Sequence record: SRR31156797_4650
Reading direction: 5' to 3' (one strand)
Length of the DNA stretch: 64,000 nt
Below, piece by piece: positions 17,084 through 43,295 of this stretch (within the stretch, counting starts at the first letter, position 1; every line of letters begins with the position of its first letter). Under the pieces are notes generated by a model that was not told the origin of the DNA, searched no databases, and worked only from the letters and a program-made list of their open reading frames with translations. The position numbers were made by a program, and so were the translations under genes.

Positions 17084-17129
17084 AAAAAAATTAAACAATG
17101 ATAAATCGTGCACAAAAAGGGGCTTACAA

Positions 17130-27356: not shown

Positions 27357-28889
27357 TTAAACAGACAAATCCGAAGCAATCTCAGCGCGTTTAGTGTGTT
27401 CTTTAAAAAGTATGGTAATAAATGTACCCGTGTCAGGCTGTGTTTTCATGGAAATATCTGCTCCATGTGTCCGCGCAATAAGAGCCGCAAAATAGGTCCC
27501 AAGACCGGTTCCATTTTCCTTGCCATGCGTCACATATTTATCAAAAAAACGCCGCCGCACATCTTCATGAACAACTTTCGAATTGCCAATGGCAATGCTC
27601 TTCCTTCCATCATCACTAAAATAAACGGACACATGATCGCCTCGACAAGAGGCCTCAATACCATTCTGTATTAGATTTCGGAACATGGCACGCAAGAGAG
27701 GCCCTTCTCCTGGGACAACAAACATTTCGCTCCCGTCGACATCCAGACCATTCAATTGCATCTTAATGGTCACCCCCATACTCTCCAGCATCGGACGAAA
27801 TTCTTCCTCAAGCCCACACATGATTTCCACTAAGTCAACCGAACTTCGGCTGAGTGAATATATCCCCTTTTCCATCTTGAAGATATTGAGCTGATTCCGA
27901 ATCATGTCGAGCATCCGATATCCGGCGGCACGGACCCGCTTGATATGTTTTTCCTGACGCGAGTTGAGATCCCCTTCACTCAAAAGCAGTTCAGGATATC
28001 CGATAACAAGACTCAGCCCGGATTTAAGATCATGACGATTAATGCGTTCCACTTCCTCCCGAATCATCTCGGCTTGAGCACGCTTCTTTATCTCAGAAAG
28101 AAGTAGGCGGTTATTCTGCAACAATTCAAGCTCATTGCGTTTCAATTGCATAGTCCGTTCTTCAACGGTTTCTTCCAACATTTCCTGATGATTGCTCAAT
28201 TGTTGATCGCGACTCTGAATCTTACCCAACATGGAATTAAACTCCGCAACAAGCACACCGAGTTCATCATCGCTATCGTAATCAACACGTCGGGAATAAT
28301 CCTTGTTTGCCGAAATCTCCCGCACCGTATCAGTCATTTGCTCCAGCGGATCGCCAAGCCTGCGGCGAAAATGAATGGCAACTCTGTAGCAACAAAACAA
28401 AATCACTGGGCACGACAAAAATGCAATAAGAATATACCCTTGCATCATGCTCCATTGATCTTCCAAAGAGAGGGTGACGACCAACACGCTGCCATGCAAA
28501 TCAGAAGGAATAGGCATAGCAACCGTCACAGACGATACCCCTAACTCAGACAGGGATTCTTCGGCCTCGATTCGCTGCGGAGCATGCCCATACGCAGCAA
28601 ACGGAGTAACATTATCTACATAGACTGCAGCTCCCATGACATCTGGAATGAAGGAAAGGGTTTCAAGACTCTCCTGTGCTGCAGAGGCATCATCAAAATC
28701 AACAGCTGCAACCAACGACGCAGCCATCAACTCAGCCTGTGCAATGGTCCTGTTGACTGCCGCCTGCCGAAACTGAATAATCATGGGCATGAGATTCAAC
28801 ACGAAAGCCAATACCAACGCGATGCTTGTAGTGCCAAGGATAGCAGCAACTATTTTCCGTCCAAGCGGGGTCAGCTGTTTACTGCTCAT
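27357..28889 (-). CDS. Membrane sensor histidine kinase (periplasmic CHASE8-like, HAMP, HisKA, HATPase)
   Basis: Two TMs; AAVDFDD periplasmic motif; HAMP DYSRRV...DELGVLVAEFNSML; H-box RHDLK; NLIQNGIEA; GKENGTGLG. Confidence 0.9.
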   Translation of the reverse strand: MSSKQLTPLGRKIVAAILGTTSIALVLAFVLNLMPMIIQFRQAAVNRTIAQAELMAASLVAAVDFDDASAAQESLETLSFIPDVMGAAVYVDNVTPFAAYGHAPQRIEAEESLSELGVSSVTVAMPIPSDLHGSVLVVTLSLEDQWSMMQGYILIAFLSCPVILFCCYRVAIHFRRRLGDPLEQMTDTVREISANKDYSRRVDYDSDDELGVLVAEFNSMLGKIQSRDQQLSNHQEMLEETVEERTMQLKRNELELLQNNRLLLSEIKKRAQAEMIREEVERINRHDLKSGLSLVIGYPELLLSEGDLNSRQEKHIKRVRAAGYRMLDMIRNQLNIFKMEKGIYSLSRSSVDLVEIMCGLEEEFRPMLESMGVTIKMQLNGLDVDGSEMFVVPGEGPLLRAMFRNLIQNGIEASCRGDHVSVYFSDDGRKSIAIGNSKVVHEDVRRRFFDKYVTHGKENGTGLGTYFAALIARTHGADISMKTQPDTGTFITILFKEHTKRAEIASDLSV

Positions 28890-29415
28890 GGGCTTCTCCC
28901 CGATATATTGTAGCTATTCGAAGTAATCTTGAACTAATGTTCAACCCCGCCACTTCGCCTGCATGCGGATTGACCTGCAACTTAAGTTTACCGCCAACCA
29001 TACGAAAATTAATGACCACTCCCTGACGAAGATTCGCAGGACTTTGCCCGATAGTCAGCACAGGCATTTCTGCTGTCCGCTTCAAAATTGCGGCAGCCTC
29101 TCTTTTGGGCGCGCCATTGATAACAAGAATATGAACACCATCCGCAGGCCATTGCACCAACCGAAACTGCGATGATGAGTCATTGAAATATGGCTTGAAC
29201 TTTTTGGAATCAGTTGCAGCGATGACATACGGTTCGCCCGGTTCCGGGCCTGCCCCTACAGGCCATTTCACATACTTGACCAACCGCTGCACATACAGGG
29301 CCTGAAGTTGTTCACTGGTCGCGGTCAAAGGTTTGTCACCGCCAAGGACTGACACTGGACACAAAAACACTGTCAAAAGAAGAAGCGTTATGATCAAAAA
29401 ATAATCACGCTTCAT
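28879..29415 (-). CDS. YfiR/HmsC (DUF4154) periplasmic protein
   Basis: Signal peptide; YVKWP, PVLTIG, INF, VNP and GLNISSRLLRIA motifs typical of the YfiR family; TAATG overlap with the receptor gene. Confidence 0.85.
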   Translation of the reverse strand: MKRDYFLIITLLLLTVFLCPVSVLGGDKPLTATSEQLQALYVQRLVKYVKWPVGAGPEPGEPYVIAATDSKKFKPYFNDSSSQFRLVQWPADGVHILVINGAPKREAAAILKRTAEMPVLTIGQSPANLRQGVVINFRMVGGKLKLQVNPHAGEVAGLNISSRLLRIATIYRGEAHEQ

Positions 29416-31337
29416 TAGAAGTCCCATGTCATACGTAAATCAACACTCGGGCCGATATGCAACGGAGAATATTGGTTCGTCGCTTCGCCAAGATTTCGAC
29501 CAATCAATTCGAGCATAAGGGTTTCCGAAGCTTTCCATGAGGCATGAGCTTCCAGAGAAAAATAACCGGGCATGAAACGCTCGTCCGGACTAATGGAATA
29601 TCCTGCCAACACATCAAACCCGACATCCTGCATGGGCTTCATGAACGCGTGAAGTTTATATTCACTCGACAATCCTTCCTCCGGCATGGAATCACCTGAC
29701 GGGAAAAAATCGATATTCCGAAGATCTTGATAAACAAGACCAATTGAAGGACTAAGACGCAACCACCTATTCACCGTCCAATCGAGAATAGCTTCAACTC
29801 CATACGCTGAACCTTCAAGTGAATTTGTCAAAGTGGCGGTCCGAGTCGCTCTATCAAAATCGATCATGGCAAGTTGATCGTAATCATTGATATAAAATGA
29901 AATGTCTCCATGGATATCCGAAGTGAAACGCTGACGATATCCGGCTTCATAGGCAATGAGTTTTTCTGTCGTCAGTGAATCCGGTGCATGAACGACGTAC
30001 TCTTTGCCACCATGCTCAATAGAATAACTTCCACTCCGTTGAAACCGTGTATCGGCCCGAACAGCCTTGGATACAGCCAACCAGTATTCCGAATCCTCCC
30101 GAGTATGCAGCAATCGGATCGTGGGTTGAACTTCCACAGGAGTCTGTCCGAAATAATCCAATTTAATTCCAAAAAAAAGAAACAAACTATCTTCAAGGAG
30201 TGTTACTCGATCTTGAACAAACCCATTTGAAGTAAATGTATACCGTCTTTCTTTATCGATAGTAGCCCTGTCTCCGCTTTTGATATCGTCCCAAAAGTAG
30301 CGACTTCCCACTCCCCATGTCAGTCGATGCCGACCGTATTGCTCGGCTGCATATTGTAATTCAGCGTCCAACGTATTAGTCCCGCCGGTCAAATCAGCCA
30401 CGCTAACGAGTTCGCGGGTAAACGAAGTCCTAAGACCCATCCCGGCATCCAACCCTGTCGCCCTATGCCAGGAAAATTGCCCATATCCACCAAATTCATT
30501 TCGAACATGCGGCCTGTAAATTTTTTGTGAACCAGAAGCACCATCATTGATGCTTGATGCCGCAAAGTCCCCTTGTAACGACAACGAATCAGTAAAAGCG
30601 TTCTCCCAATCGACCCGAAAACCACCCTGCTGTTTGACCCAATCCTGAGAGCTTCGATCATCACCCTCACCCGTAATCCAGTCACCGGTCCTGTAACCGC
30701 CGCTGAGATAGCCTCTGTAGGCCACGTCATCAACGGTGTCGCCATACCGAAACAACTGCTCTACGCCGGTTGATCCGGCAAGAGTCACACTCTGCCCGCC
30801 CTGCGTCTCAGCGGCACTTTTAGTAATAATATTGATAACGCCAGTAAAAGAATCTGCACCCCATAAATGGGTCCACACACCGCGCACGACTTCGATACGT
30901 TTCACCATACTGACCGGGATTGTGTTTCCCCAAACCACCCCTGCTGTTGTCGGTGAAGTAATAGGCCGACCATCAAGCAACACCAAATGCTTGTTGCTTA
31001 AAATCCCGTTGAAACCACGAATACCTATGGCCCACTTGTCTGTATCCATCTGAACAACATGCAGGCCAGGGACAAGTTTAAGTGCTTCTGCGATGGTAGT
31101 AGCCCCTGAGCGAAAGATGTCATCTTCGTCCAAAACGGTCACAGCTCCTGCGACCTGCGACAAAGGCTCGGCACGACGAGAGGAGGTAACCACGTCTACA
31201 TCCATCAACTCTTCAAGGCTCAATGAGGCCAAAGGATCGTCTGTATCGGCCCATGCACTGCCAACACAGCATAAAAAAAGACAAATAAGACACAGGCACT
31301 GGACCCGAAAAGCGGACAGCCACCCTCGCACCATCAT
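29415..31337 (-). CDS. TonB-dependent receptor-like outer-membrane protein
   Basis: Signal peptide; LSLEELMDVDV, IRGFN, LVLLDGR and IEVVRG plug motifs; C-terminal Phe (WDF). Confidence 0.88.
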   Translation of the reverse strand: MMVRGWLSAFRVQCLCLICLFLCCVGSAWADTDDPLASLSLEELMDVDVVTSSRRAEPLSQVAGAVTVLDEDDIFRSGATTIAEALKLVPGLHVVQMDTDKWAIGIRGFNGILSNKHLVLLDGRPITSPTTAGVVWGNTIPVSMVKRIEVVRGVWTHLWGADSFTGVINIITKSAAETQGGQSVTLAGSTGVEQLFRYGDTVDDVAYRGYLSGGYRTGDWITGEGDDRSSQDWVKQQGGFRVDWENAFTDSLSLQGDFAASSINDGASGSQKIYRPHVRNEFGGYGQFSWHRATGLDAGMGLRTSFTRELVSVADLTGGTNTLDAELQYAAEQYGRHRLTWGVGSRYFWDDIKSGDRATIDKERRYTFTSNGFVQDRVTLLEDSLFLFFGIKLDYFGQTPVEVQPTIRLLHTREDSEYWLAVSKAVRADTRFQRSGSYSIEHGGKEYVVHAPDSLTTEKLIAYEAGYRQRFTSDIHGDISFYINDYDQLAMIDFDRATRTATLTNSLEGSAYGVEAILDWTVNRWLRLSPSIGLVYQDLRNIDFFPSGDSMPEEGLSSEYKLHAFMKPMQDVGFDVLAGYSISPDERFMPGYFSLEAHASWKASETLMLELIGRNLGEATNQYSPLHIGPSVDLRMTWDF

Positions 31338-32044
31338 TAGACAGCCGCTCCCTGTGAAGTGGCGAGTAGATATCCTCTTCCTCGAATAGTCTTGATGCTG
31401 ACGTGTGCCCCCAGCTTTTTCCGCAGATTACTCATATGAACATTAAGGACGTAATCATCAAACTCAACACCCCGACCAAGCGCCTGCTCCATAAGATCAT
31501 TTCGTTCAACCACGGCCCCCATATTCAAGGCTAACTGTTCAACGATATCATACTCCGTTGAAGTCAAATGCACGGGATTGTCATCAAGGGTCATGTTGCG
31601 GGTATTTCTATCAATGACCACATTACCAAATTCAATGCTCTTCTTCCTGAGCATCTTCACGGTCCCGCCTTCTGATCGACTGGTGTCATACCGGCGAAGC
31701 ACGGCCCGAATTCTCGCCAGCAACTCACGAAGCGGAAAAGGTTTGGCGATGTAATCATCAGCCCCCATTTCCAATCCTACCACCCGGTCAATCTCTTCTC
31801 CGCGCCCGGTCAGCATGATCACCGGAATATTTGAATTAGATCTCAAGGCAGAAAGAACATTGAATCCACTCAGGTCAGGCAACATGACATCAAGCAGAAT
31901 CAGCTCATACGACTTTTTCTCGGCAGCCTGAATACCAGACTCACCTGTATACATTGAATCAAGGGTAAACCCTTCGCTTTGAAGATAGCTGGACAAAAGC
32001 TCCGCAACCTCAGGATCGTCATCTATCAACAACAGATCACTCAT
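31337..32044 (-). CDS. OmpR/CpxR-family response regulator
   Basis: LIDDD, LLDVMLP, GADDYIAKPF, VHMSNLRKKL and TIRGRGY motifs. Confidence 0.95.
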   Translation of the reverse strand: MSDLLLIDDDPEVAELLSSYLQSEGFTLDSMYTGESGIQAAEKKSYELILLDVMLPDLSGFNVLSALRSNSNIPVIMLTGRGEEIDRVVGLEMGADDYIAKPFPLRELLARIRAVLRRYDTSRSEGGTVKMLRKKSIEFGNVVIDRNTRNMTLDDNPVHLTSTEYDIVEQLALNMGAVVERNDLMEQALGRGVEFDDYVLNVHMSNLRKKLGAHVSIKTIRGRGYLLATSQGAAV

Positions 32045-32229
32045 ACCGCCCCCTTTTCATTTGATTATATAGCTTTAGAAGAAACGCTGAAACTCATATA
32101 ATGTTAATTTATATAAAGAAGGTTAAGACACATTAATAATCACTGTATTTTTCTCAATATCTCATGCAATTTTTATGCAGGGAAAAATTTTCCCATGTAA
32201 ACGGATTGCCCACCCTCCTCCGTATAGAG

Positions 32230-32245
32230 GGGCATTGAATGTGCG
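32230..32245 (+). promoter_or_regulatory. Candidate sigma54 promoter of the flagellin gene
   Basis: GGGCATTGAATGTGCG has GG-N10-GC spacing. Perfect palindrome GGGAAAA-A-TTTTCCC upstream at 32180-32194. Confidence 0.45.
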
Positions 32246-32271
32246 TTTTGCTCACCGTGAACAAAACCACC

Positions 32272-32298
32272 GCATGGATGCACCCACTTTCAAGGAGG
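32272..32298 (+). promoter_or_regulatory. CsrA-binding hairpin plus RBS in the flagellin leader
   Basis: GCA-TGGA-TGC (GGA in the loop), with a second GGA in the RBS AAGGAGG. Confidence 0.6.
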
Positions 32299-32303
32299 AA
32301 AGT

Positions 32304-33158
32304 ATGTCTCTGGTCGTTAACAACAACTTAATGGCAAACTCGGCAGCCCGGTATCTGAACAACGCATACAGTGCTTTGGGCACCTCAACGGAACGCCTGT
32401 CTTCTGGTCTGCGCGTCAACAGCGCAGCGGATGATGCCGCTGGACTGGCAGTCCGCGAGCTTATGCGCTCCGACATCTCAACCCTCAACCAAGGGGTCAG
32501 GAACGCCAATGACGGCATTTCCATGATCCAGACAGCAGACGGAGCGCTTTCCGTCATTGATGAAAAGCTCATCCGTATGAAGGAACTGGCCGAGCAGGCC
32601 GCCACCGGTACGTACACCGACAGTCAGCGTGAACTTATCGACGATGAGTATCAGGCCATGGCTTCGGAAATTACCCGTATCGCCAATGCTACTGACTTCA
32701 ACGGCATTTACTTGCTCAACGGCAATCTGTCCGGCGACGGACTGACAGTTCACTTCGGTACTGGCAACGATGCCACTGAGGACAAGTACGCCATTACCAT
32801 CGACAATTGCACAGCATCAGCTCTCGGGGTGGGCTCAAACAGCACTACCGGAGTCGGCGCTGCCGTTTCTACTCAGGAACTCGCCCAGAATTCTCTGGAC
32901 GCACTCAACTCGGCCATCGTGTCCAAGGACAAAGTCCGAGCCAACCTGGGTTCAATGCAAAACAGACTCTCGGCAACCATTTCCAATCTGGAAGTCCAGG
33001 CGGAAAACCTTCAGGCTGCCGAATCCCGCATCTCCGATGTGGACGTGGCAACTGAGATGACCGAGTACACCAAGCAGCAGATCATAACCCAATCTGCCGT
33101 GGCCATGCTCTCACAGGCCAACTCACTCCCGCAGATGGCCTTGTCACTCATCGGCTAG
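32304..33158 (+). CDS. fliC: Flagellin (284 aa, minimal D0/D1 type)
   Basis: ERLSSGLRVNSAADDAAGLA, NANDGISMIQTADGAL and AESRISDVDVATEM motifs. RBS AAGGAGG places the start at 32304. Confidence 0.96.
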   Translation: MSLVVNNNLMANSAARYLNNAYSALGTSTERLSSGLRVNSAADDAAGLAVRELMRSDISTLNQGVRNANDGISMIQTADGALSVIDEKLIRMKELAEQAATGTYTDSQRELIDDEYQAMASEITRIANATDFNGIYLLNGNLSGDGLTVHFGTGNDATEDKYAITIDNCTASALGVGSNSTTGVGAAVSTQELAQNSLDALNSAIVSKDKVRANLGSMQNRLSATISNLEVQAENLQAAESRISDVDVATEMTEYTKQQIITQSAVAMLSQANSLPQMALSLIG

Positions 33159-33176
33159 TCCACTCCTTCTCCAACA

Positions 33177-33213
33177 TGAGGACCGACTCGGAACCAATCC
33201 GGGCCGGTCCTCA
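33177..33213 (+). terminator. Long stem-loop after fliC
   Basis: TGAGGACCG...CGGTCCTCA with an inner TCGGA/TCCGG pair; weak U-tract. Confidence 0.6.
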
Positions 33214-33451
33214 CTCTTTACATCGTCCAAACTCCCGACGCGGTTACATCTTTTTTCCCATCGGCGTTTTTTTCCGGCCTGCACTTTCCCTCACGGAGAA
33301 CAAATGGTTTTACCCCACTCTCAACTATCTTTTTTTATTAAGAATTATTTATTTTCATTTCATCAGAACGGATTCATCAAAATAAAACAGATCAATTCTT
33401 CATTTTTTAAAAATATTTACTAACATATTTTTTATATAAGTAAATATTAAA

Positions 33452-33467
33452 CGGTATTCATATTGCT
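33452..33467 (+). promoter_or_regulatory. Sigma54 (-24/-12) promoter of the sigma-flgDEKL-fliD operon
   Basis: CGGTATTCATATTGCT (GG-N10-GC with TTGCT). Predicted +1 near 33478, just before RBS AGGAGG; preceded by a very AT-rich tract. Confidence 0.6.
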
Positions 33468-33491
33468 CATTTTGTAGTCAGGAGGCGAACA

Positions 33492-34073
33492 ATGAGTAGT
33501 ACACTAGTTGAAATAGAAAAGAGTTTTGGCGAGATATCATATGATAATCTCTTTAAAAAGCACTCTAAACTCATATTCAAACTCATTTATAACTTCATTA
33601 ATGCAAAAAATATTAAACTTCATAGCAGTGAAGTGGATGACATCTTTCAAGAAATTGCATTAAAAATTTTTAAAAATGACTATCTTTCTAAATACAATAA
33701 AGAAAAAAGCTCATTTATTACATGGCTTAATATCATATGTAGAACAACTACAATTGATTACTACAGAAAGAAAATTCGTTGGACAGAGTCTGTACTCACC
33801 GAATCACACAACAGCTCCGAAGCGACAAGTGTGGACGCAGCCATATTCAGTCTCCCGGCGGGAGTTCTTACAGCCCGACAAACGGAAGTCATAACACTCC
33901 TCTTTAAGGAAGGAATGGTGGCCTGCGAAGTCGCAACAGCATTGGGAATCACAACCAGAACCGTCAGAAGCATCAAATTCCAAGCCCTAAATAGACTTCG
34001 TGATTACTACGGCGCCACGCCAGCACTTCACGAAATAGGCATCACGGAAACACACAGGAGGAAGGTCTCATGA
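33492..34073 (+). CDS. ECF-type RNA polymerase sigma factor
   Basis: Region 2 DDIFQE...FITWLNIICRTTTIDYYRK; region 4 LTARQTEVI...EVATALGITTRTVRS...ALNRLR; 193 aa; ATGA overlap with flgD. Confidence 0.85.
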   Translation: MSSTLVEIEKSFGEISYDNLFKKHSKLIFKLIYNFINAKNIKLHSSEVDDIFQEIALKIFKNDYLSKYNKEKSSFITWLNIICRTTTIDYYRKKIRWTESVLTESHNSSEATSVDAAIFSLPAGVLTARQTEVITLLFKEGMVACEVATALGITTRTVRSIKFQALNRLRDYYGATPALHEIGITETHRRKVS

Positions 34074-34756
34074 GTATCGACACCACAAGTTATTACGACT
34101 CACTGGTGCAGTCTTCTGCGCCTGATCCGGTCACCATCACCACTGATACTGAAGCCAGCTCCCTCTCCTCGGATGATTTCATCACGTTGTTGCTGGCCGA
34201 GTTACAATATCAGGACCCAACAGAGCCTGTGGACAACGCACAGATGGTCGACCAGATGACCCAATACTCCCAGCTCGAACAGATGACGGAGATGAATGAA
34301 AAAATGGATGCCCTGACCGAAAGTCTTGGTTCCATGACCGCCGCCAACGGCTTGGACTACCTCGGCAAACAGGTCGAAGCGGATGGATCAACCATCAGCG
34401 TATCGGGTGACTCCATTTCCTCTCTTTATTTCGAACTGCCCGAAGACGCCGCCTCAGTGACCTGCAACGTCTACGACAGCAATGGTTCCATTGTGGACAC
34501 CGAAACCTACTCCGAACTGAATGCCGGAATCAGTGCATTCACGTGGGACGGCACCGATTACAACGGCGACACAGCGAGCAACGGCATATACTACGTGGTC
34601 GTTTCCGCACAAGACAGCAATGGAGCGGATATCGACGTATCCACCACAACCACGGGCACCGTTATCGGCATCAGCAATACCGATGATGGCGTCATCCTTT
34701 CTCTCGACGACGGACGCACCGTGAACATGCTGGACGTCACATACGCCACTTCTTGA
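34070..34756 (+). CDS. flgD: Flagellar hook-capping protein FlgD (acidic paralog)
   Basis: DDFITLLLAELQYQDPTEPVDN...QYSQLEQ and FTWDG motifs. Confidence 0.93.
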   Translation: MSIDTTSYYDSLVQSSAPDPVTITTDTEASSLSSDDFITLLLAELQYQDPTEPVDNAQMVDQMTQYSQLEQMTEMNEKMDALTESLGSMTAANGLDYLGKQVEADGSTISVSGDSISSLYFELPEDAASVTCNVYDSNGSIVDTETYSELNAGISAFTWDGTDYNGDTASNGIYYVVVSAQDSNGADIDVSTTTTGTVIGISNTDDGVILSLDDGRTVNMLDVTYATS

Positions 34757-34796
34757 TCAAAATTAATCAACTTTCTGTCAATACAAGGAGATAGAC

Positions 34797-36347
34797 ATGA
34801 GTATCACAGGATCAATGTACGCAGGGATTTCCGGTCTTCAGGCACAAAGTCAGGCGACTTCGGTGGTCAGCAGCAACCTCGCGAACTCCACAACCACTGG
34901 CTACAAAAGTTCATCCATAGCTTTTGAAGACGTTTTCTACAGCACGGTCTACGCAGGCAACAGCGCTGACCAGGTCGGTAACGGTGTATCCGTGGCCTCC
35001 ATCAATACTGATTTCTCTCAGGGTGCATACCAATCCACCAACTCAGTCACTGACGTTGCCATCAACGGTGATGGATTCTACATGCTCGTGGACCCAGACA
35101 CAGACAATACCTATTACACCCGCGCCGGCAACTTCACCTTTGACACGAATGGCTACCTCGTAGATGCCCACGGCAATCGTGTTCAGGGATGGGAAATGGC
35201 AGACGATTCCATCTCCGGCGGGTTGACCGATATCCAACTGGACAACTCTCAGTCCCCGCCCAACGCCACCAGCGAAATCAGCTTCTCGTTGAACCTCGAT
35301 TCTACATCCACGGACAACAGCACATCCACCACCAGCCCATACACAGCACTGTTTGATGCCTATGACGGTACGGCAGAACCACCCATGGACGACTCCCGTT
35401 ATGCATATCAGACAACCATCTCGACATATGACGAGAATGGTGCCGCCCATGACATGACCATATATTTCGACCCCGTGGAAACCACTGACGGCGATCTGGT
35501 TTGGGAATACGTCCTCACCTGTGATGCCAGTGAAGACATGCGCGATTTCAACGGCACTGAAATGAGCACCACAAGCGGTGCGGGCGCACTCATGACCGGC
35601 ACCATGACGTTCTCCTCTTCCGGTGATCTGCAAAGCATGACTGCGTTCACTCTCTCGGACACACCGACGGACCCGACCGATCCCATGGCTGCCGAGAACT
35701 GGGAACTGGCGGAATTCGACACCAACGGGCTACCCATCTTCGACACCAATTTCACCGGCTCCGACGAAAATCAGGAAATCACACTGGACCTCGGCATCTC
35801 GAACTCGGATTACAGCACAGGCACCGGTTGGGACACCACCGGCGGCATTGACTCACTGGATGACTTGAACGCGGCAACCGTTACCGATGACCTACCTTCA
35901 TTCAATACGGGCGTTCTTGCCACAGGCGCCACCACCAGCACGACCTCCGGGTCCGCTACATTCAGCCTGAATCAGGACGGTTATGCTCCCGGCGTGCTCA
36001 TCGATGTTTCCATCAGCGAAAACGGCGTGCTTTCAGGTCGATATACCAATGGGCAGACACAAGAACTGTACACTCTCGGACTGGCTGACTTCACCAACAC
36101 ACAGGGTCTCTATTCTGAAGGAAGCAATCTGTACTCGGCGACCACGGAATCCGGACAGGCCTATATCGGCACTCCCGGCTCCGCAGGCTTCGGCTCCATA
36201 GCCTCCAACGTTCTGGAACAATCCAACGTGGACACAGCCACGGAACTGACCAACCTCATCATTATCCAAGCCGCATATCAGGCCAACTCCAAGGTCGTCA
36301 CTACGGCAGACACTCTGCTCCAGACAGCCATTGGTATGAAGCGATAA
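34797..36347 (+). CDS. flgE: Flagellar hook protein FlgE (acidic paralog)
   Basis: NLANSTTTGYK, DVAINGDGF, YTRAGNF, QDGY and LEQSNVD...YQANSKV motifs. Confidence 0.95.
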   Translation: MSITGSMYAGISGLQAQSQATSVVSSNLANSTTTGYKSSSIAFEDVFYSTVYAGNSADQVGNGVSVASINTDFSQGAYQSTNSVTDVAINGDGFYMLVDPDTDNTYYTRAGNFTFDTNGYLVDAHGNRVQGWEMADDSISGGLTDIQLDNSQSPPNATSEISFSLNLDSTSTDNSTSTTSPYTALFDAYDGTAEPPMDDSRYAYQTTISTYDENGAAHDMTIYFDPVETTDGDLVWEYVLTCDASEDMRDFNGTEMSTTSGAGALMTGTMTFSSSGDLQSMTAFTLSDTPTDPTDPMAAENWELAEFDTNGLPIFDTNFTGSDENQEITLDLGISNSDYSTGTGWDTTGGIDSLDDLNAATVTDDLPSFNTGVLATGATTSTTSGSATFSLNQDGYAPGVLIDVSISENGVLSGRYTNGQTQELYTLGLADFTNTQGLYSEGSNLYSATTESGQAYIGTPGSAGFGSIASNVLEQSNVDTATELTNLIIIQAAYQANSKVVTTADTLLQTAIGMKR

Positions 36348-36371
36348 CGGTCACGATATCGGGAGGGCGAC

Positions 36372-38384
36372 ATGATCAACAATCTGTATAATATCGGACT
36401 GAAGTCACTGCAAAATGCGCAAGTGTCCATCGACAACGCGTCGAACAACATCGCCAATGCAGACACGCCCGGATACCAACAGACAGAGGCCGTTTACGAA
36501 ACCGGCGATTCCATCACCATACAAGGTCTCACTGTCGGCACTGGTGCGGACGTGGTGGCCATCCAGTCGGCATTCGATGAATTTGTGGAAGCGCAATATC
36601 TCGACGCCTCCGCAGATTTGGCCTGTCAAAACGCCGCCTATCAGTACCTGTATCAACTCGACTCACTGCTAAACCAAACGGACGGTGGACTCAGTACATC
36701 GCTGGATGATTTCTTCCTGGCCTGGAATGAATTGAGCACTGATCCGGACTCTCTGTCCGCACGTGAAGCCCTATTGGGTGAAACGCAATCATTAATCTAC
36801 GGTCTCAATTCCACAGCAGAACAACTTGAAGGTGTGGAAGAAAGCATCAACACGGAAATCCAGAACGAAATAAGCGAAGCCAATCAACTCATTGAAGACA
36901 TAGCCCTGTCGAATGCGGCCATTGCAGCCAATCCAAATGATCTTCAGGCCATTGCCGAACGCGATCAGATGATCCGTAATCTCGATGCGATCATCGGAGT
37001 CAACGCGCTTTACAAATCCAATGGGGAAGTCACGATCATGACCGAAGAGGGATATACCATGGTGGACGGAACTGAAACGCACAGCCTTGTCTATGGAGAT
37101 CCGAATGCTACGGCTTCACTGATTCGTGACTCTGATTATGATGGAACTATCGAGTTCTCCGGGTCATCAAGTGAAGAACTCCTTCTTGAATTCGTTTCTA
37201 CCGGCCCGGACGGAACAGCGGAATTCAAAGTCTCCACCGACGGCGGCAATACCTGGTTGGAAGACGAAAACGGCGACACCATGCTCTACACGGCGGGCGA
37301 CGAGAATTCCCCAGTTGAAATCGAAGGGGTAGAGATATGGTTTGAGGGCAGCACCACAGACCATACAACAGGTGATCGATACGCCGTTACCCCCAAAAGC
37401 GGCCTGTATTGGGAAACCGGTGATGGTTCATTACAAAACATCACCCCCATGACCGATGCATCGGGGCAGGGAGTCTCCGGACGCACTTCAGGAGGAAGTC
37501 TGGCAGGGCTTTACACAGCACGAGATGACACAGTTCTCCCCACCCTTGACGCACTGGATGACATAGCCAATGCCCTCATCTGGGAAGTCAACGCCGAACA
37601 TGCGCAGGGGGCCGGACTGGAACATCACACAGGACTGACTGGCAGCTACAGCATGGAGGATTCCAGCGCCCTGCTCAGCAACAGTGGTCTCACATATGCC
37701 GACAATATTCAGGCAGGAGAGCTTGAATTGGTGACATACAACGCAGAAGGAACGGTCTCCACTTCGGCTGTCATATCCGTTGATCCGGCCACGAATTCCA
37801 TGGATGACATCATCAATTCCATCAACACACTCTATGCAGGAGAACTCACGGCATCCGTCAACGGTGACGGGCAACTGCAAATCGCAGCAGCCTCGGACGT
37901 AAGTTTCGAGATTGCAGGAGACTCATCAAACCTTCTTGCCGCGACAGGCATGAATACCTTTTTCACGGGTTCGGATGCTTCGACCATTGCAATAGACAGT
38001 TACATCGCAACCGACACCGCACACATCAACAGCGGAGTCGTTGGTGACGACGGTCTGGTTTCATCTGGAAACAACGATGTAGCCAACGCAATGATGACTC
38101 TTTCAAGCGAGAACGTCTCTGTAGGGTCTATGACCACGACTCTCAGTGCTGCCCTTTCAACGCTTGTATCTGACGTTGGTTCAGCAACCTATTCCACAGA
38201 ACTCAAGCTGACCTATGCCCAGACTTCAGCCCAGTATCTTTACGACCAACAGGCCTCTGTCAGTGAAGTAAATGTTGACGAAGAGCTTCTCGATCTCACC
38301 AAATATCAACAACAATACCAAGCTGCTGCAGAAATAATCTCTGTCACGCGAACCATGATGGATACCATTTTGGACATGGTCTAA
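36372..38384 (+). CDS. flgK: Hook-associated protein FlgK (acidic paralog)
   Basis: NNIANADTPGY, GGSLAGL and VNVDEE...YQQQYQAAA motifs. Confidence 0.92.
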   Translation: MINNLYNIGLKSLQNAQVSIDNASNNIANADTPGYQQTEAVYETGDSITIQGLTVGTGADVVAIQSAFDEFVEAQYLDASADLACQNAAYQYLYQLDSLLNQTDGGLSTSLDDFFLAWNELSTDPDSLSAREALLGETQSLIYGLNSTAEQLEGVEESINTEIQNEISEANQLIEDIALSNAAIAANPNDLQAIAERDQMIRNLDAIIGVNALYKSNGEVTIMTEEGYTMVDGTETHSLVYGDPNATASLIRDSDYDGTIEFSGSSSEELLLEFVSTGPDGTAEFKVSTDGGNTWLEDENGDTMLYTAGDENSPVEIEGVEIWFEGSTTDHTTGDRYAVTPKSGLYWETGDGSLQNITPMTDASGQGVSGRTSGGSLAGLYTARDDTVLPTLDALDDIANALIWEVNAEHAQGAGLEHHTGLTGSYSMEDSSALLSNSGLTYADNIQAGELELVTYNAEGTVSTSAVISVDPATNSMDDIINSINTLYAGELTASVNGDGQLQIAAASDVSFEIAGDSSNLLAATGMNTFFTGSDASTIAIDSYIATDTAHINSGVVGDDGLVSSGNNDVANAMMTLSSENVSVGSMTTTLSAALSTLVSDVGSATYSTELKLTYAQTSAQYLYDQQASVSEVNVDEELLDLTKYQQQYQAAAEIISVTRTMMDTILDMV

Positions 38385-38400
38385 CCTCAAAGGAACAGTC

Positions 38401-39594
38401 ATGCGTATCAGCACATCACAAATATTTTCCCAGTCTCTCAACCAGATGAATACCGCGCTCAATGATGTAGCGGAACTCAACATGATGGAATCCACTCAAA
38501 AAAAAATCAACAGGCCGTCAGATGATCCCGCCGGAATGGCGAATATCATGAACCTGAACGCTTACGATCAATCCCTGAGTGGCTACATGGATAACTGCGG
38601 TACTGCCACGGACAGTCTTGATTTGGCAGATCAAGCATTAATGCAGGTCAGTGAAAATATCATAGCTGCCATGGAACTGGCCGAACAGGGATCGACCGAA
38701 ACATACACTGATGAACAGCTCCAGATGATGGCTCTGGAAATGGAAAGCTACCTCGACAGTATACTCGCCATTTCCAACACCCAAATGGGGGCGGACTCTC
38801 TCTTTGCAGGAGACGATCTCGGCAACAATGCATACGAAATGGGCCTTGGAGTCACGTTGCCAAATGACTCATTGAACGACGCGGACTTTGCTTCCATGAC
38901 CGGTGAAATCGACAGCACGGTCCACGTCCAATTCAGTGAACCAGGTGTCATCGGAACTGATGAAATCGACTACCAATATTCCACCGATAACGGTCAGACA
39001 TGGACAACCGCCACACTTGCGGCTGGCGACACGACCATTGATGTCGGGACCGCCCAGATTGATTTTACCACAGGTACCTCGGTAACACCGGCTGACGGCA
39101 ACGGGAATGGTACGGAATTCTATCTGCGAGAAACGGCCCATTACACCGGAAGTGACACAGCCATGTCCGTTGCCATTTCCGAAAACACCAATGTGGATAT
39201 GACCACCGTGGGCAGTACTGTCTTCGGCGGTGTCGACCCGGCAACCAACATGCCTTACACAGAACCCAATCTCTTCGAGACCTTAAGCGACTGCATCGTC
39301 TACATGGAAAACGGCGATCAGGATGCAGTGGCCGCATGCCTCGACGATCTGCGCGACGCTCATGAAAATGTCGAAACGGGTTCAGCCAACGTCGGCGCGA
39401 GAGAAAACAAGATTTCCTACACTGAGCAATCCTTGGGGCTGATCCGGGAAGTGACCACAAACAGTATCAGCCGCGAGGAAGACGCCAACGCAACTCAACT
39501 GATTGTCGAGCTTGAACAGGCCAATTACGTCTATGAAGCTGTGCTCAGATCGACTGCTGATATCATGAAAATGAGCATACTCAATTATATTTAA
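38401..39594 (+). CDS. flgL: Hook-associated protein FlgL (acidic paralog)
   Basis: MRIST, KKINRPSDDP, LFAG, VGAREN motifs; C-terminal SILNYI. Confidence 0.93.
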   Translation: MRISTSQIFSQSLNQMNTALNDVAELNMMESTQKKINRPSDDPAGMANIMNLNAYDQSLSGYMDNCGTATDSLDLADQALMQVSENIIAAMELAEQGSTETYTDEQLQMMALEMESYLDSILAISNTQMGADSLFAGDDLGNNAYEMGLGVTLPNDSLNDADFASMTGEIDSTVHVQFSEPGVIGTDEIDYQYSTDNGQTWTTATLAAGDTTIDVGTAQIDFTTGTSVTPADGNGNGTEFYLRETAHYTGSDTAMSVAISENTNVDMTTVGSTVFGGVDPATNMPYTEPNLFETLSDCIVYMENGDQDAVAACLDDLRDAHENVETGSANVGARENKISYTEQSLGLIREVTTNSISREEDANATQLIVELEQANYVYEAVLRSTADIMKMSILNYI

Positions 39595-39604
39595 GGAGGA
39601 AGTC

Positions 39605-41326
39605 ATGGGATACGTCTCTTCTGTTTCCAGTAATGTCATTGCATACGAGCCTGTTACGACCTCTGGTGAAGTCTCATTCTCAGGACTGGGTAACGGGACG
39701 GACTTCCAGGAAATCATCGACGTCACCATTGATTCCGAAAGCTATCAAAAAGAAGAGTACGAAGCCCAAAAGACTGAAACAGAATACATAATCAGCCTTT
39801 TGGAACAGTTGGAAAGCGAAATGGATGAACTCAACACCTCGCTGAAAGACTTGGACGAACCTGACGAATTCTACACCATGGAAGGAACCAGCAGCGGCGA
39901 TGAGGTCGATGTGGAAGTCACTGGCGAAGCGGATGTTGGCGTACACACTGTCATTGTTGACCAGTTGGCCCAAAATGACATCTGGATAAACAGCGCACAA
40001 GGATACGATGCGGAAACTACTGTTGTCGCAGATACGGCCACAACTCTGGATATAACATTTCAGGGAGACACCATTTCCATTGATGTAGCCGCCGGGACCA
40101 CTCTTCAGGGACTTGTGGACACCATCAACGGCAGCGTGGCCGCACGCGACAAGGTCGAGGCCGACCTCATGTTTGACGGCGACAGTTATTACTTCGTCCT
40201 GAAAAGCACCGACTCCGGCGAAAATAACGCCATCACCATCGACAGCACGGGTTCACTGAACGGCATGGACCCGACTGGGTTCGCCCACACCCAGACAGCG
40301 CAAAACTCAAAAATCAAGGTAGATGGATTCCCGGATAATCCAAACCAATGGATAGAACGCGACACCAATTCCATAGATGACGTAATAAACGGCATGACCC
40401 TTGATCTCAAAGAGACAACTGGAAGTGATGGAGTCAAGATATCGGTGGATTACGACACTGACGGGATGCTCGACACCATCATGGATGTGGTAGCCGACAT
40501 GAACCAGATCATTCTCGACATTCAGGTTCTGACAGGTCGCGTCACTGAGGAGGAAGACCCGGAAACGGAAGCCTATACAATCGACAACTACGCCATGGAC
40601 ATCATGTACAACGAACTCAAAAGCATCCTGTCATCAGGCGCACTCGGGTTCACACGATATGACGAAGATGAAGGTGGAGATTATTACAACGCTCTGTCAC
40701 AAATTGGATTTTATACTGACACGGATGAAGGATCTGACACATTCGGTCAATTGCTCGTGGAAGAAGACGAATTACAGGAAGCCTTGGACACCGATCCCGA
40801 AGCTGTGGCCGCATTATTTTCCGAAAGCGGTGTTGGCGAATCAGACAGTGACGACTTCCAAGTCATCTCTGTCATCGATTCCGTAACGCCTCCGGGTGAT
40901 CATTCGGTTGAATATACCATTTCCGGTGGAGCGATCACCTCGGCAACTATTGACGGCAAAGAAGCTGAAATTGACGGCTGGACCATTCTCGGCACCGATT
41001 CGACCTCAACCGGTTTATTTATCTCGGTGGGAGACCATAGCGACGGGGACTATTCTGGCACGGCACGGGTAAAGCAGGGCAAAATCGGTGAAATATCAGA
41101 CGCCCTTGATGCCATGTCAGATGAAGATACTGGAACCCTGTCCATTCTCATCAAAAACTATGAAGAAAGCGTCACTAGTCTGGACAATCAGATATACAAT
41201 GAAGAAAAACGACTCGACACATTGGAAACATCACTGACACGCAAGTACGCTGCTCTCGATGCGACTTTAAGCACTTACGAAAACCTCAGCGCCATGCTCA
41301 CGAGTCAATTGGCACAGCTTGATTAA
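39605..41326 (+). CDS. fliD: Flagellar filament cap FliD (acidic paralog)
   Basis: FSGLGNGTDF, VDQLAQ, AQNSKIKVDG, LSQIG motifs; C-terminal coiled coil KYAALD. Confidence 0.92.
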   Translation: MGYVSSVSSNVIAYEPVTTSGEVSFSGLGNGTDFQEIIDVTIDSESYQKEEYEAQKTETEYIISLLEQLESEMDELNTSLKDLDEPDEFYTMEGTSSGDEVDVEVTGEADVGVHTVIVDQLAQNDIWINSAQGYDAETTVVADTATTLDITFQGDTISIDVAAGTTLQGLVDTINGSVAARDKVEADLMFDGDSYYFVLKSTDSGENNAITIDSTGSLNGMDPTGFAHTQTAQNSKIKVDGFPDNPNQWIERDTNSIDDVINGMTLDLKETTGSDGVKISVDYDTDGMLDTIMDVVADMNQIILDIQVLTGRVTEEEDPETEAYTIDNYAMDIMYNELKSILSSGALGFTRYDEDEGGDYYNALSQIGFYTDTDEGSDTFGQLLVEEDELQEALDTDPEAVAALFSESGVGESDSDDFQVISVIDSVTPPGDHSVEYTISGGAITSATIDGKEAEIDGWTILGTDSTSTGLFISVGDHSDGDYSGTARVKQGKIGEISDALDAMSDEDTGTLSILIKNYEESVTSLDNQIYNEEKRLDTLETSLTRKYAALDATLSTYENLSAMLTSQLAQLD

Positions 41327-41580
41327 TTCCGGGGACGATCTCTCTTTTCCGACGATATGAACCTCAATCTCCGACTCCCAACTTCACGAGAGTCGGACGT
41401 GTGCTCAGATTTTCTGCACTCATCGCCAGTAGATGCATTCGTAGCATTCTTGCGCATTATCCGCCTCAACACATCCACAGGAATTTCGACCGGCAATATC
41501 ATGGCAACCCACCATTTTCATTTCATTAAAAAAGGGCCGCATCTGTTGACACAGCCCTGATTTCAGTCTTGCCAAAACGT

Positions 41581-42042
41581 TTAGGCACTTACATCCAATC
41601 CAGTTGATAAGGATTGATTATAGTCACCGCCAAACATGGCGTCCTGCATTCGGCCATACTGTTCAATGCCTTGGGCTTGATTATCGCCGGAGTTACCTCC
41701 GGTCATATCCATCAACTGTTGGAAAGCCTGAGAGCCTCCGTTAAGTTTAATACCACCCAAGCCATTGCCCCCACGTCCCGCGTCAAGTTCTTCCTGCGAC
41801 ACAAAACCATCTTCATCGGTATCCAATGGGTCAAGTTCTTCGGTACTGTCCGAAGAATCTGAGGCTTCAGAAGAGGATGCGCCAATCTGACTCAAAAGGT
41901 CATCACTATCGGCATCCAACGCATCCGCAAAATCCGAACTTTCTGACGACGCTTCGGGCGGGGGCGGAGGCGACTGCATGCCACCCTGCATTCCCATCAT
42001 TCCGGCCATGGAACTCATCGAACTCATAGAGCCAATTTCCAT
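41581..42042 (-). CDS. Low-complexity acidic EF-hand protein (153 aa)
   Basis: RBS AAGGAG, ATG at 42042. Met/Ser/Gly-rich N-terminus, poly-Pro, degenerate loop DADSDDLLSQIG and canonical loop DTDEDGFVSQEE. No signal peptide. Confidence 0.8.
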   Translation of the reverse strand: MEIGSMSSMSSMAGMMGMQGGMQSPPPPPEASSESSDFADALDADSDDLLSQIGASSSEASDSSDSTEELDPLDTDEDGFVSQEELDAGRGGNGLGGIKLNGGSQAFQQLMDMTGGNSGDNQAQGIEQYGRMQDAMFGGDYNQSLSTGLDVSA

Positions 42043-42233: not shown

Positions 42234-43295
42234 TTACAGTTGAACAGTATTCAAAACCACGGAAAGAGCCTTGAACCAGAACTCAACATCATCGCCGTGT
42301 TGCAAGTCAAGATTCCTGGCACTCTGTTCAGAAATAAGCGCACACACGTCAGAACCATCCGGTAGGCGCCCCAACACTTCTGAGAGCACGGGAGAATCGG
42401 TCACACGAATAACAGTCCCCTTGAATCGATTCCTCGCACTGCCAACCGGTGTTTTACGGCACGAAATGACGTTGACCAGCGGGGCCTTGACTGTAGCAAT
42501 GACAGGCGCACCTTTCACGAGCTTCAAATTCCGAAGACTGTCTGCGGTAATAACGGCGGAAAGTATCATGCCCGATCTTGTTTCCATCGTCACTTCCGCC
42601 ATGACCGAATCCTCGACAACACCGACAACATGACCAACAAAAGAGTTCCGCGCACTGGTCCGTTTACGCATGACATTATGGGCTGTCCGCACAATGGACT
42701 GCATATCACCTGTCGAAAACTGTTGGAAATTCGCCGTCAAATCGAGCGAAGACTGACCAAGGACTTCCTTAACAATCGTGATGGGGACACCGCTGCGAAG
42801 CATCTCCACGGCCCGTGTGTTGCGCAAAGATTTTGGACAAACATGGTCTTTGGTCAATCCGCATTCCTTCCCGCGAGCATAACAGATACGCCGAAAGTAC
42901 CCAGGGTCAACTTGAAAAAACGTCCCTCGCAAGCCACATCCCAACGGCCCTTCAAGAGCTGCCATTACCTCGGTAAACAACTCGTTTGAAAGTGGCACTT
43001 CCCGAATTCTTCCTTCCCGTCCCAAACGAACAAACGGTCCTTCAGCATCAAAGGCGGTTGTATCATCAAGAGAAAGTATCTCTCCTAAGCGCGCACCTGT
43101 ATGCCTGAGCATCAAAAAGATGAGCCACATGCGCTCCCTTGCCTGCACACTGTCCGCACGAACTGCCGCGATCTTCCACTCCTTGAACGCCTGTTCAAAA
43201 TCACGCATTTCAGACGGTTCCAGATAATTCACATGCTCCGACACATTAAAAAAGTCTCGGGGGTAGGCCTTGCTGGATGATTTGACACTGCTCAT
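42234..43295 (-). CDS. tunR: TunR-family Mo/W-responsive regulator (inactive tyrosine-recombinase fold plus 2 TOBE domains)
   Basis: TGARLGE and a degenerate box II, followed by two SARN TOBE/Mop repeats; divergent from modCAB. Confidence 0.85.
   Translation of the reverse strand: MSSVKSSSKAYPRDFFNVSEHVNYLEPSEMRDFEQAFKEWKIAAVRADSVQARERMWLIFLMLRHTGARLGEILSLDDTTAFDAEGPFVRLGREGRIREVPLSNELFTEVMAALEGPLGCGLRGTFFQVDPGYFRRICYARGKECGLTKDHVCPKSLRNTRAVEMLRSGVPITIVKEVLGQSSLDLTANFQQFSTGDMQSIVRTAHNVMRKRTSARNSFVGHVVGVVEDSVMAEVTMETRSGMILSAVITADSLRNLKLVKGAPVIATVKAPLVNVISCRKTPVGSARNRFKGTVIRVTDSPVLSEVLGRLPDGSDVCALISEQSARNLDLQHGDDVEFWFKALSVVLNTVQL

Follow-up and report, generated by a model that had tools for sequence, protein, structure and literature searches.

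Genes of the locus

The stretch of DNA analysed here, 64,000 nucleotides (nt) of sequence record SRR31156797_4650 and hereafter called the window, carries between positions 27357 and 42042 a cluster of flagellar genes which covers the extracellular axial parts of a flagellum and lies back to back with an operon for a sensory system. Genes were called from six-frame open reading frames (ORFs) and from matches to Pfam and NCBIfam models. The sensor operon consists of four genes on the minus strand, which overlap one another by 1-13 nt, and its first gene, encoding a response regulator (RR), is separated by a spacer of 259 nt from the divergent flagellin gene fliC2. The latter is followed by a structural operon headed by the gene of an extracytoplasmic function (ECF) type sigma factor, which shares the overlap ATGA with flgD2; the gaps within this operon do not exceed 40 nt. 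The suffix 2 denotes members of the set found in the window (set 2) as distinct from the canonical copies treated below.

27357-28889, minus strand: sensor histidine kinase with a periplasmic CHASE8 domain (PF17152), HAMP, HisKA and HATPase_c (Pfam)
28879-29427, minus strand: YfiR-like periplasmic protein (DUF4154) with signal peptide (Pfam PF13689, 82 bits)
29415-31337, minus strand: TonB-dependent receptor, plug and barrel (Pfam Plug domain; TOL_0244 match over residues 36-620)
31337-32044, minus strand: OmpR/PhoB-type RR, first gene of the sensor operon (Pfam Response_reg and Trans_reg_C)
32304-33158, plus strand: fliC2, short flagellin of 284 aa with D0/D1 only (Pfam Flagellin_N and Flagellin_C)
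33492-34073, plus strand: ECF-type sigma factor of 193 aa, head of the structural operon (Pfam Sigma70_r2 and r4, no r3)
34070-34756, plus strand: flgD2, hook cap (Pfam FlgD, FlgD_ig and FlgD_tudor)
34797-36347, plus strand: flgE2, hook protein (Pfam Flg_bb_rod, D1, D2 and Flg_bbr_C; TIGR03506 with 307.8 bits, above 70.25)
36372-38384, plus strand: flgK2, first hook-filament junction protein (TIGR02492 with 253.8 bits, above the cut-off of 170.75)
38401-39594, plus strand: flgL2, second junction protein, 397 aa (TIGR02550 with 183.7 bits, above the cut-off of 127.2)
39605-41326, plus strand: fliD2, filament cap (Pfam FliD_N and FliD_C)

The ORF of fliC2 spans 32175-33158, yet the conserved start MSLVVNNN is placed at 32304 by an alignment of the spacers of ten loci. 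In all six axial proteins (FlgD, FlgE, FlgK, FlgL, FliD and flagellin) the Pfam domains of the respective family are intact. The sigma factor scored 64.2 bits against TIGR02937 (sigma70-ECF, cut-off 42.9) and only 28.3 bits against the FliA/WhiG model (cut-off 189.6). An anti-sigma gene next to an ECF factor is usual, though not universal, yet none adjoins this one: flgD2 overlaps its end, and the spacer between fliC2 and the sigma gene was without a conserved ORF in the ten loci. In the region from 23.3 to 44.9 kb none of the ORFs tested with Pfam was recognised as coding for a rod, ring, motor or export component, for FliK or for a chaperone, and the cluster yielded no FliS domain.

An initial annotation, made from the sequence alone, had described an overlapping RR/TonB-receptor/YfiR/HAMP-kinase operon divergent from fliC, followed by the sigma-flgD-flgE-flgK-flgL-fliD operon and a convergent EF-hand gene, with external flagellar parts only. 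This gene map is confirmed by Pfam and NCBIfam in every position, and the restriction to external parts holds for all ORFs tested.

Copy number, distribution and descent of the set

Genome-wide counts were obtained from G001, a complete genome of 3.70 Mb with 96% DNA identity to the window over the locus, which served as a stand-in, and from other relatives. In G001 FlhA, FliK and FliS occur once each, FlgD occurs twice, and there are three full-length FlgE-like genes (99%, 46% and 38% identical to FlgE of the window) and six Flagellin_N matches, of which three belong to flagellins and two to FlgL, the last one being weak. Outside the cluster it carries canonical FlgK, FlgL and FliD and two flagellins, and the canonical genes are arranged as fliK-flgD-flgE with a flagellin near, as fliC-fliD-fliS and as flgK-flgL beside rod genes. 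FlhA occurs once, and FlgD and FliD twice, in each of the complete, cluster-bearing genomes G121, G077, G060 and G074. FlhA is single in G001 and in all five other complete cluster-bearing genomes, FliK and FliS are each single in the five genomes tested for them, and no additional rod paralogs turned up with the FlgE query in the genomes searched. These copy numbers imply that the genes of the locus are not sole copies and that there is only one export apparatus. The assumption of the initial annotation that the locus holds a paralogous set limited to external parts is thereby borne out, as G001 keeps flgD/E, flgK/L and fliD/fliC elsewhere, and an alternative complete distal set that shares one basal body and export apparatus is well supported.

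The third FlgE-like gene of G001 (L013:10226-11896, corresponding to G001:C1:2994228-2995832) encodes 556 aa with all FlgE domains and 38% identity to FlgE of the window. It is an orphan, with a tetratricopeptide repeat protein next to it and no flagellar neighbour, and occurs also in G121 and G077 and not in G037.

FlgE2 is 46% identical to canonical FlgE, and the hook, junction and cap paralogs altogether show 29-46% identity to their canonical counterparts; FliC2 shares 72-73% with both canonical flagellins, and FlgL2 has 397 aa compared with 551 aa in the canonical protein. In FlgD, FlgE, FlgK, FlgL and FliD of the window Lys and Arg make up 1.3-4.0% and Asp and Glu 13-21% of the residues, as against 4.7-8.5% and 9-16% in the canonical copies of G001. 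The net charge of FlgK ranges from -66 to -102 in 12 copies from the window's clade (hereafter tier 1), from -24 to -72 in 19 canonical copies and from 0 to -110 in ten copies from more distant set-2 clusters (tier 2). Even-depth contigs from the sequencing runs X1-X4, which belong to one study and are of unknown kind, span the whole locus in a related strain and are uninformative on expression. All of these contigs break within fliC2 (32573-32722), which fits near-identical stretches of the three flagellin genes.

A natural experiment is provided by G037, a genome of 1.9 Mb in one contig and 99% complete, which has one FlhA, FliK, FliS and FliA and also only one each of FlgD, FliD, FlgK, full-length FlgE and FlgL, all five of which lie in the sigma-linked cluster. 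Its FlgK nests within the window's clade. As this is the only set in G037, the set of the cluster presumably builds the whole hook and filament there, on an ordinary basal body and with the ordinary ruler and chaperone.

FlgK of the window found a match in 136 of the 151 sampled genomes of G001's family and at least two matches in 59 (counted by hand), although some of the second matches from fragmented assemblies may be split genes. The surroundings (20 kb) of 20 of the better second FlgK copies were compared by tblastn with the proteins of the window. Nine of them, from four genera, displayed the entire layout, with the kinase, YfiR-like, receptor and RR genes divergent from fliC, sigma, flgD-E-K-L and fliD. 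One had RR and kinase without receptor or YfiR, one (G037) consisted of sigma-flgD-E-K-L-fliD with no adjacent RR, seven combined flgD-E-K-L-fliD with a nearby flagellin, a sigma factor (26-31% identical) and an OmpR-type RR (43-48%) and lacked receptor and YfiR, and two retained the structural genes only. The one distant locus examined encodes, after the RR, a kinase that has HAMP and no CHASE8, and receptor and YfiR are likewise absent.

A scan of named genomes by alignment of the sigma factor yielded 31 loci, in 30 of which flgD-E-K lie beside the sigma gene, the remaining one being a contig of 1.8 kb. The full sensor layout was present in 16 of these 31 and on one further, truncated contig. 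According to their titles, the loci belong to Pseudodesulfovibrio (closest), Maridesulfovibrio, Fundidesulfovibrio, Desulfocurvus, metagenome-assembled genomes (MAGs) of Desulfovibrio/Desulfovibrionaceae and one MAG of Desulfovibrionales. After removal of redundancy the entire layout recurs in 23 tier-1 loci (Pseudodesulfovibrio, Maridesulfovibrio and allies) with all frames intact, and a sigma profile found its target in 45 of 151 genomes of the family, in 39 of the 124 of high quality and in 24 of 72 genera. Four of the sigma matches (G075, G111, G012 and G022) hold one in-frame stop. These may be pseudogenes, or the profile may have run past the true start.

Contigs of MAGs titled outside the family also carry the sigma gene, namely L100 (Acidobacteriota), L111 (Proteobacteria) and L109 (Verrucomicrobiota), and the first two bear a Desulfovibrionales-like flgD-E-K-L-fliD block as well, for which mis-binning or transfer may account. 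G146 has three FlgK matches, on L056, on L080 and a third presumed to be canonical: one, of the window's clade, has two flagellin genes and a kinase in its cluster, where receptor and YfiR are missing, and the second belongs to the more distant set-2 clade.

The conserved core thus comprises the two-component system, the sigma factor, fliC and flgDEKL-fliD, with the RR adjoining sigma or fliC in both clades, whereas the input by TonB-dependent receptor, YfiR-like protein and CHASE8 is a clade-specific form of the sensor. The prediction that sensor, sigma factor and structural genes would travel together was accordingly right for the 23 non-redundant loci and too broad with regard to the TonB/YfiR/CHASE8 input, which is confined to one clade.

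In a maximum likelihood tree of 41 FlgK sequences canonical and set-2 proteins were split with a Shimodaira-Hasegawa-like approximate likelihood ratio test (SH-aLRT) value of 100, and the branching order of the genomes was similar in both halves. A second tree was rooted with eight FlgK sequences from other families of the phylum, excluding the wrong-strand ORFs L127 and L128 and containing no alphaproteobacterial sequences. In this tree set 2 formed a clade (99), the canonical proteins another (85), and both together were separated from the outgroups (100); FlgK2 consequently forms a clade of its own, sister to that of canonical FlgK. Matches to FlgK outside the family were single, shorter and partial. 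The tree and these matches indicate that the genes were duplicated within the lineage, then passed on vertically and lost repeatedly; the congeners G005, G128 and G099 show one FlgK match each, the canonical one.

Compared with G001, the ratio of nonsynonymous to synonymous substitutions (dN/dS) amounts to 0.00 in fliC2, 0.04 in flgD, 0.03 in flgE, 0.08 in flgK and flgL and 0.05 in fliD, and purifying selection on the module is well supported. FlgK of set 2 evolves somewhat faster than the canonical protein, with a median path-length ratio of 1.2 over 78 non-independent pairs and of 1.4-1.8 in most close pairs. The sigma gene differs from its neighbours, which are 96-99% identical to G001, in showing only 84% nucleotide identity, a dS of 0.70 and two compensating gaps. 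Allelic replacement by recombination is a possible cause of this hot spot, and across genera sigma is the least conserved gene of the cluster. The kinase gene, with 93% identity the lowest after sigma, contains compensating single-base indels at 27602-27609 when compared with G001 and with the related strain of runs X1-X4.

Downstream of fliD2 lies the convergent ORF mentioned above:

41581-42042, minus strand: acidic EF-hand ORF, convergent to fliD2, with EF-hand loop DTDEDGFVSQEE and a good ribosome-binding site

It had no Pfam match and in NCBIfam only a weak one to the XopAW family (38.6 bits, cut-off 120). The expectation that this gene accompanies the module failed, as it recurs in one of the 31 related loci and shows a dN/dS of 0.55 against G001, and for want of conservation it was rejected as a member of the system. 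Other neighbours tested with Pfam are unrelated and comprise MarR, an O-methyltransferase, ABC transport genes and a TOBE-domain protein. This last one (42234-43295, minus strand, 353 aa) adjoins molybdate-type ABC transport genes and combines two C-terminal TOBE domains with a partial Phage_integrase match (residues 133-189), a mixture that is odd for a ModE-like regulator.

Regulatory signals and the sensor operon

The intergenic regions were aligned over ten loci and subsequently over all 23 non-redundant tier-1 loci, which led to the following candidate signals:

32104-32137, strand not assigned: four direct repeats T(T/A)AA(G/T), about 10 bp apart, putative RR binding array
32200-32226, plus strand: predicted ECF-type promoter of fliC2, (A/C)ACG-N16/17-CGTATA, in 23 of 23 tier-1 loci
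32272-32298, plus strand: fliC2 leader with GCATGGATGC (GGA in a short hairpin) and AAGGAGG, strict pattern in 20 of 23 loci
33178-33212, plus strand: hairpin after fliC2, probable terminator separating fliC2 from the sigma operon
33453-33466, plus strand: predicted sigma-54-type promoter GG-N8-TTGC (-24/-12), in 23 of 23 tier-1 loci and also in G037

The motif upstream of fliC2, which we take to resemble ECF promoters of the AAC...CGT kind, has a single match in the 64-kb window, where 0.05 would be expected, and is unlike the promoters of the canonical flagellins of G001. The latter (L015 at about 762.8 kb and L011 at about 3676 kb) carry a sigma-28 site, TAAAGTTT-N11-GACGATGA, in one case and a sigma-54 site, TGGCACGCATACTGCT, in the other, so that together with fliC2 three flagellin genes have three types of promoter, and the GGA hairpin and AAGGAGG occur in the leaders of all three. 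These leader elements, found in both canonical flagellins as well as in fliC2, presumably recall CsrA sites, and the fliC2 leader may be bound by CsrA. The GC-rich hairpin with its T-run is conserved after fliC in relatives; a simple terminator scan did not pick up the copy of the window.

The sigma-54-type site ends 26 nt upstream of the start codon of the sigma gene, the motif having a background of 0.3 per kb and strand. RpoN was present in all four genomes tested, and the canonical fliK-flgD-flgE operon is preceded by TGGCACGTCTTTTGA, again of the sigma-54 class. In G037 the sigma-54-type site is kept before the sigma gene, and TAAACA-N16-CGTATA stands before an unlinked flagellin gene. 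Promoters of sigma-54 require an AAA+ enhancer-binding protein, which a regulator of the OmpR type is not. No gene for such a protein is present in the locus, and a genome-wide search for one was not made. At the tier-2 locus L065 the motif CCATGGATGAAC-N14-CGTAT was seen before both the sigma gene (about 7400-7600) and fliC (17087-17980), which suggests an autoregulated ECF promoter in the tier-2 clade at the place where tier 1 has the sigma-54 site.

The direct repeats lie in front of both genes, at 59-93 nt from the start codon of the RR gene and some 60 bp before the -35 element of fliC2, and we assume their form to be the one expected of OmpR/PhoB-type sites. Like repeats were seen in tier 2, in the spacers between RR and sigma and upstream of fliC, and binding of the RR to the array at 32104-32137 appears plausible from their form and position.

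In NCBIfam the best matches of receptor, periplasmic protein and kinase were the TOL_0244 TonB-dependent receptor, the TOL_0243 YfiR-like and the HK_near_YfiR_like (NF053592) families, all three of which are named for their co-occurrence. As the scores stay below the equivalog cut-offs (376.2 against 645, 84.5 against 125 and 128.9 against 194 bits), the trio is regarded as distantly related to these families. No STN signalling domain was detected in the receptor. In the YfiBNR system YfiR restrains a CHASE8 sensor, and an outer-membrane partner sequesters YfiR. For receptor (residues 31-640) and YfiR-like protein (residues 30-182) a complex was predicted, in a run without custom alignments, with an interaction prediction score from aligned errors (ipSAE) of 0.55 (median of three runs; best control 0.01), a value that counts as weak support; only 5 of 78 solved complexes passed with a score of 0.60 or less, as did all four of the mismatches that passed. 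The predicted local distance difference test (pLDDT) of the partner was at least 85 and the agreement of contacts between runs at least 85%. A YfiR-like relay with the receptor as outer-membrane partner and the kinase as output would be consistent with these features.

Interpretation and comparison with known systems

We read the locus, with a probability of about 0.6, as a self-contained second module for the distal flagellum, which comprises all six extracellular axial parts, stands under two-tiered control and shares the basal body of the cell; probably, one motor can build two different flagella. The module would have arisen by duplication within the Desulfovibrionaceae lineage and would have been vertically inherited and frequently lost. 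On the first level of control, an enhancer-binding activator would act on the sigma-54 promoter and give rise to a transcript of the ECF sigma factor and flgD2-E2-K2-L2-fliD2, and on the second the ECF sigma factor would read the single ECF-type promoter of fliC2. The OmpR-type two-component system would bring in environmental input at the divergent RR/fliC2 region, by way of autoregulation and probably of a modulation of fliC2, and in the window's clade the YfiR-like protein would hold the CHASE8 kinase in check, with the TonB-dependent receptor as its outer-membrane partner. The proteins of set 2 would be exported by the single flagellar type III apparatus, would share the cell's single ruler, FliK, and its single chaperone, FliS, and would be assembled on the ordinary rod and basal body, and new basal bodies would receive a hook, junction and filament which are more acidic and poor in Lys and Arg. 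A 're-skinning' of the hook on existing basal bodies, as first imagined, is ruled out: the export of hook proteins precedes the substrate switch, so that the alternative hook could be fitted only to newly formed basal bodies.

Several points weigh against this interpretation. The promoter of the structural operon is of the same sigma-54 class as that of the canonical hook operon, and both sets could be made together without any switching. The assignment of factors to promoters was drawn solely from resemblance and conservation of motifs: the AAC-to-CGT spacing of 17-18 nt before fliC2 exceeds slightly the classic ECF spacing, the -10 element is not far from that of sigma-28, and in four genomes the exact motif was no commoner than its reversed control, so that fliC2 is the only visible ECF target. 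The termini of the proteins are barely better conserved than the rest (identities in N50, middle and C50 of 42, 45 and 52% in FlgE and of 30, 34 and 48% in FlgK). Compatibility with one rod, FliK and chaperones is therefore assumed for genomes with two sets, only G037 lending support, and 'conserved termini, divergent middle', which is only weakly true, was dropped as an argument. In G116, G066 and G112 the sigma gene does not lie beside the second FlgK. Finally, the claim of chemically different paralogs stands with respect to fewer Lys and Arg and more Asp and Glu residues, yet the acidic shift, although real, is one of degree.

Given the sigma-54-type promoters at both hook operons, the two sets might also be co-expressed, with the proteins of set 2 as minor, co-polymerised components that tune the composition of a mixed structure. 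The identity of 72-73% between FliC2 and the canonical flagellins makes co-polymerisation plausible, and for Azospirillum FliC2 is reported to make up a small share of the polar filament (PMC12826043). However, a minor subunit would not need both caps (FlgD and FliD) and both junction proteins, which are all present, the paralogs of hook, junction and cap share only 29-46% of their residues with the canonical proteins, and G037 relies on set 2 alone. Mixed assembly is hence considered rather unlikely.

The initial annotation had the sensor switch on the whole kit, i.e., the receptor/YfiR/kinase/RR module as master switch, with the phosphorylated RR directly activating all genes upon an outer-membrane cue. 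The strict synteny of the sensor operon in the 23 tier-1 loci would suit such a role, as would the RR retained beside sigma in tier 2, the RR-type repeats in both the RR-fliC and RR-sigma spacers and a like pair of repeats at 33338-33352, upstream of the sigma-54 site. Nevertheless, the structural operon has a promoter of the sigma-54 type, which needs an AAA+ protein, in all 23 loci, and the repeat array, 59-93 nt from the RR start codon, adjoins the RR operon itself and suits autoregulation; G037 moreover has sigma factor and set without an adjacent RR, and the sensor input varies between clades. As the RR cannot drive a sigma-54-type promoter alone, the wiring is at least two-tiered, the claim of direct switching is not borne out, and the RR as sole master appears unlikely.

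A non-swimming appendage, exported by the flagellar apparatus and serving adhesion, the binding of cations or metals, or the evasion of flagellotropic phages or grazers, would agree with the highly negative net charge of tier-1 FlgK (-66 to -102), with its somewhat faster evolution relative to the canonical copy (median ratio 1.2) and with the adjoining sensor of the outer-membrane/periplasmic stress type. We regard it as improbable, since G037, with this set only, keeps FlhA, FliK, FliS and FliA, as fits ordinary motility, and since all true axial protein domains are intact. Redundant or decaying duplicates without a distinct role might be suspected from the frequent loss (G005, G128 and G099 show canonical FlgK only) and from the in-frame stop in four sigma matches; with dN/dS values of 0.00-0.08, intact frames and conserved promoters in 23 loci and retention across 24 of 72 genera, selection and conservation bring this very improbable reading close to refutation. 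A complete second flagellar system of the lateral type with its basal body elsewhere, conceivable because dual systems are well known in other bacteria, is refuted for the genomes searched by the single FlhA (G001 and five of five others), the single FliK and FliS (five of five) and the lack of extra rod paralogs with the FlgE query.

If the second-module interpretation is correct, it touches on the current view in which a basal body is permanently tied to one hook, one junction and one filament. The second flagella known so far each come with a basal body of their own, whereas here only the extracellular half is duplicated, conserved and under selection. This raises the questions of how substrate order and choice are managed between two sets that share export gate, ruler and chaperone, how a divergence down to 29-46% identity is tolerated at the rod-hook and chaperone interface, and which ecological cue would make it worthwhile for marine sulfate reducers to keep another flagellum of more acidic composition. 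It also offers a testable cascade from sigma-54 to an ECF sigma factor, and would supply a first output for an uncharacterised trio of receptor, YfiR-like protein and kinase that the NCBI models know by neighbourhood. In the literature searched (supplementary files excluded) neither the cluster in Desulfovibrionaceae nor the trio has been described.

Bacteria with dual polar and lateral systems, such as Vibrio parahaemolyticus, Aeromonas and Azospirillum, possess two separately regulated sets of hook, junction, filament and cap. These dual systems have export gate, basal body and motor genes of their own, whereas set 2 shares the single FlhA, FliK and FliS; without its own export gate, the module is not a second system of the lateral type. 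In Helicobacter and Campylobacter flaA is under the control of sigma-28 and flaB of sigma-54. The two canonical flagellins of G001 are alike in carrying a sigma-28 and a sigma-54 site, respectively, but a third flagellin with an ECF-type promoter and a whole paralogous set for hook, junction and cap are added here. As in YfiBNR (TpbB) of Pseudomonas aeruginosa and HmsCDE of Yersinia, a DUF4154/YfiR protein lies beside a CHASE8 sensor and an outer-membrane partner; unlike in YfiBNR, a histidine kinase with its OmpR-type RR takes the place of a diguanylate cyclase (GGDEF) as output, and the partner is a TonB-dependent receptor instead of the OmpA-like lipoprotein YfiB.

We know of no dedicated anti-sigma factor encoded beside HrpL, an ECF sigma factor of Pseudomonas syringae. 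HrpL depends on sigma-54 through HrpR/S and drives genes of type-III-secreted proteins (PMC5263251), and the order from sigma-54 to ECF factor at our locus resembles that cascade. The HrpL regulon serves an injectisome and the factor belongs to a different sigma group, while the sigma factor of the locus is co-transcribed with structural genes and appears to have one visible target.

Closest is the RpoE6/Asf6 cluster of Azospirillum brasilense Sp7 (PMC12826043, J Bacteriol, Dec 2025). There the ECF sigma factor RpoE6 drives the small flagellin FliC2 and is opposed by Asf6, and comparable synteny, with the sigma gene as first gene of the cluster, is reported from Rhodopseudomonas, Bradyrhizobium and Magnetospirillum (PMC12826043). 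Given this system, the earlier statement that nothing of the kind had been described is out of date. Both clusters combine an ECF sigma factor of about 190 aa with flgD, flgE, flgK, flgL, a small flagellin of D0/D1 only and fliD, and RpoE6 drives the promoter of the flagellin itself (PMC12826043), as is proposed for the sigma factor of the locus. The differences are nonetheless considerable. The RpoE6 cluster includes fliS and asf6, whereas the locus is devoid of fliS, flgN and an anti-sigma gene; its sigma gene heads the structural operon behind a sigma-54-type promoter, only its flagellin gene has an ECF-type site, and a two-component system is attached, here with TonB-dependent receptor and YfiR-like protein. 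The promoter motifs differ as well, with AACG-N16/17-CGTATA at the locus and CGCCAG-N16-CGTGAG for RpoE6, and the sharing of one basal body is not discussed in the consulted parts of that paper (PMC12826043).

A tblastn search with the sigma factor and FlgE2 against a plasmid collection gave no Azospirillum match, and as FlgK of set 2 is sister to the family's own canonical FlgK, the likeness between the two clusters is probably convergent. It is put forward tentatively, at less than even odds, that the Desulfovibrionaceae evolved a plug-in cassette independently of RpoE6, by which one basal body and export gate can receive either of two complete hook-to-cap assemblies, the choice resting with a cascade from sigma-54 to an ECF factor that is fed by an envelope-sensing two-component system; in the window's clade this input would be a relay from TonB-dependent receptor and YfiR-like protein to the CHASE8 kinase, an architecture not characterised so far. 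On this reading the cassette is fully competent, having replaced the canonical set in one reduced genome (G037). If so, the outer half of the flagellum would be a swappable module which bacteria have reached at least twice, and the apparent convergence with the RpoE6 cluster of Azospirillum would suggest a general principle of design.

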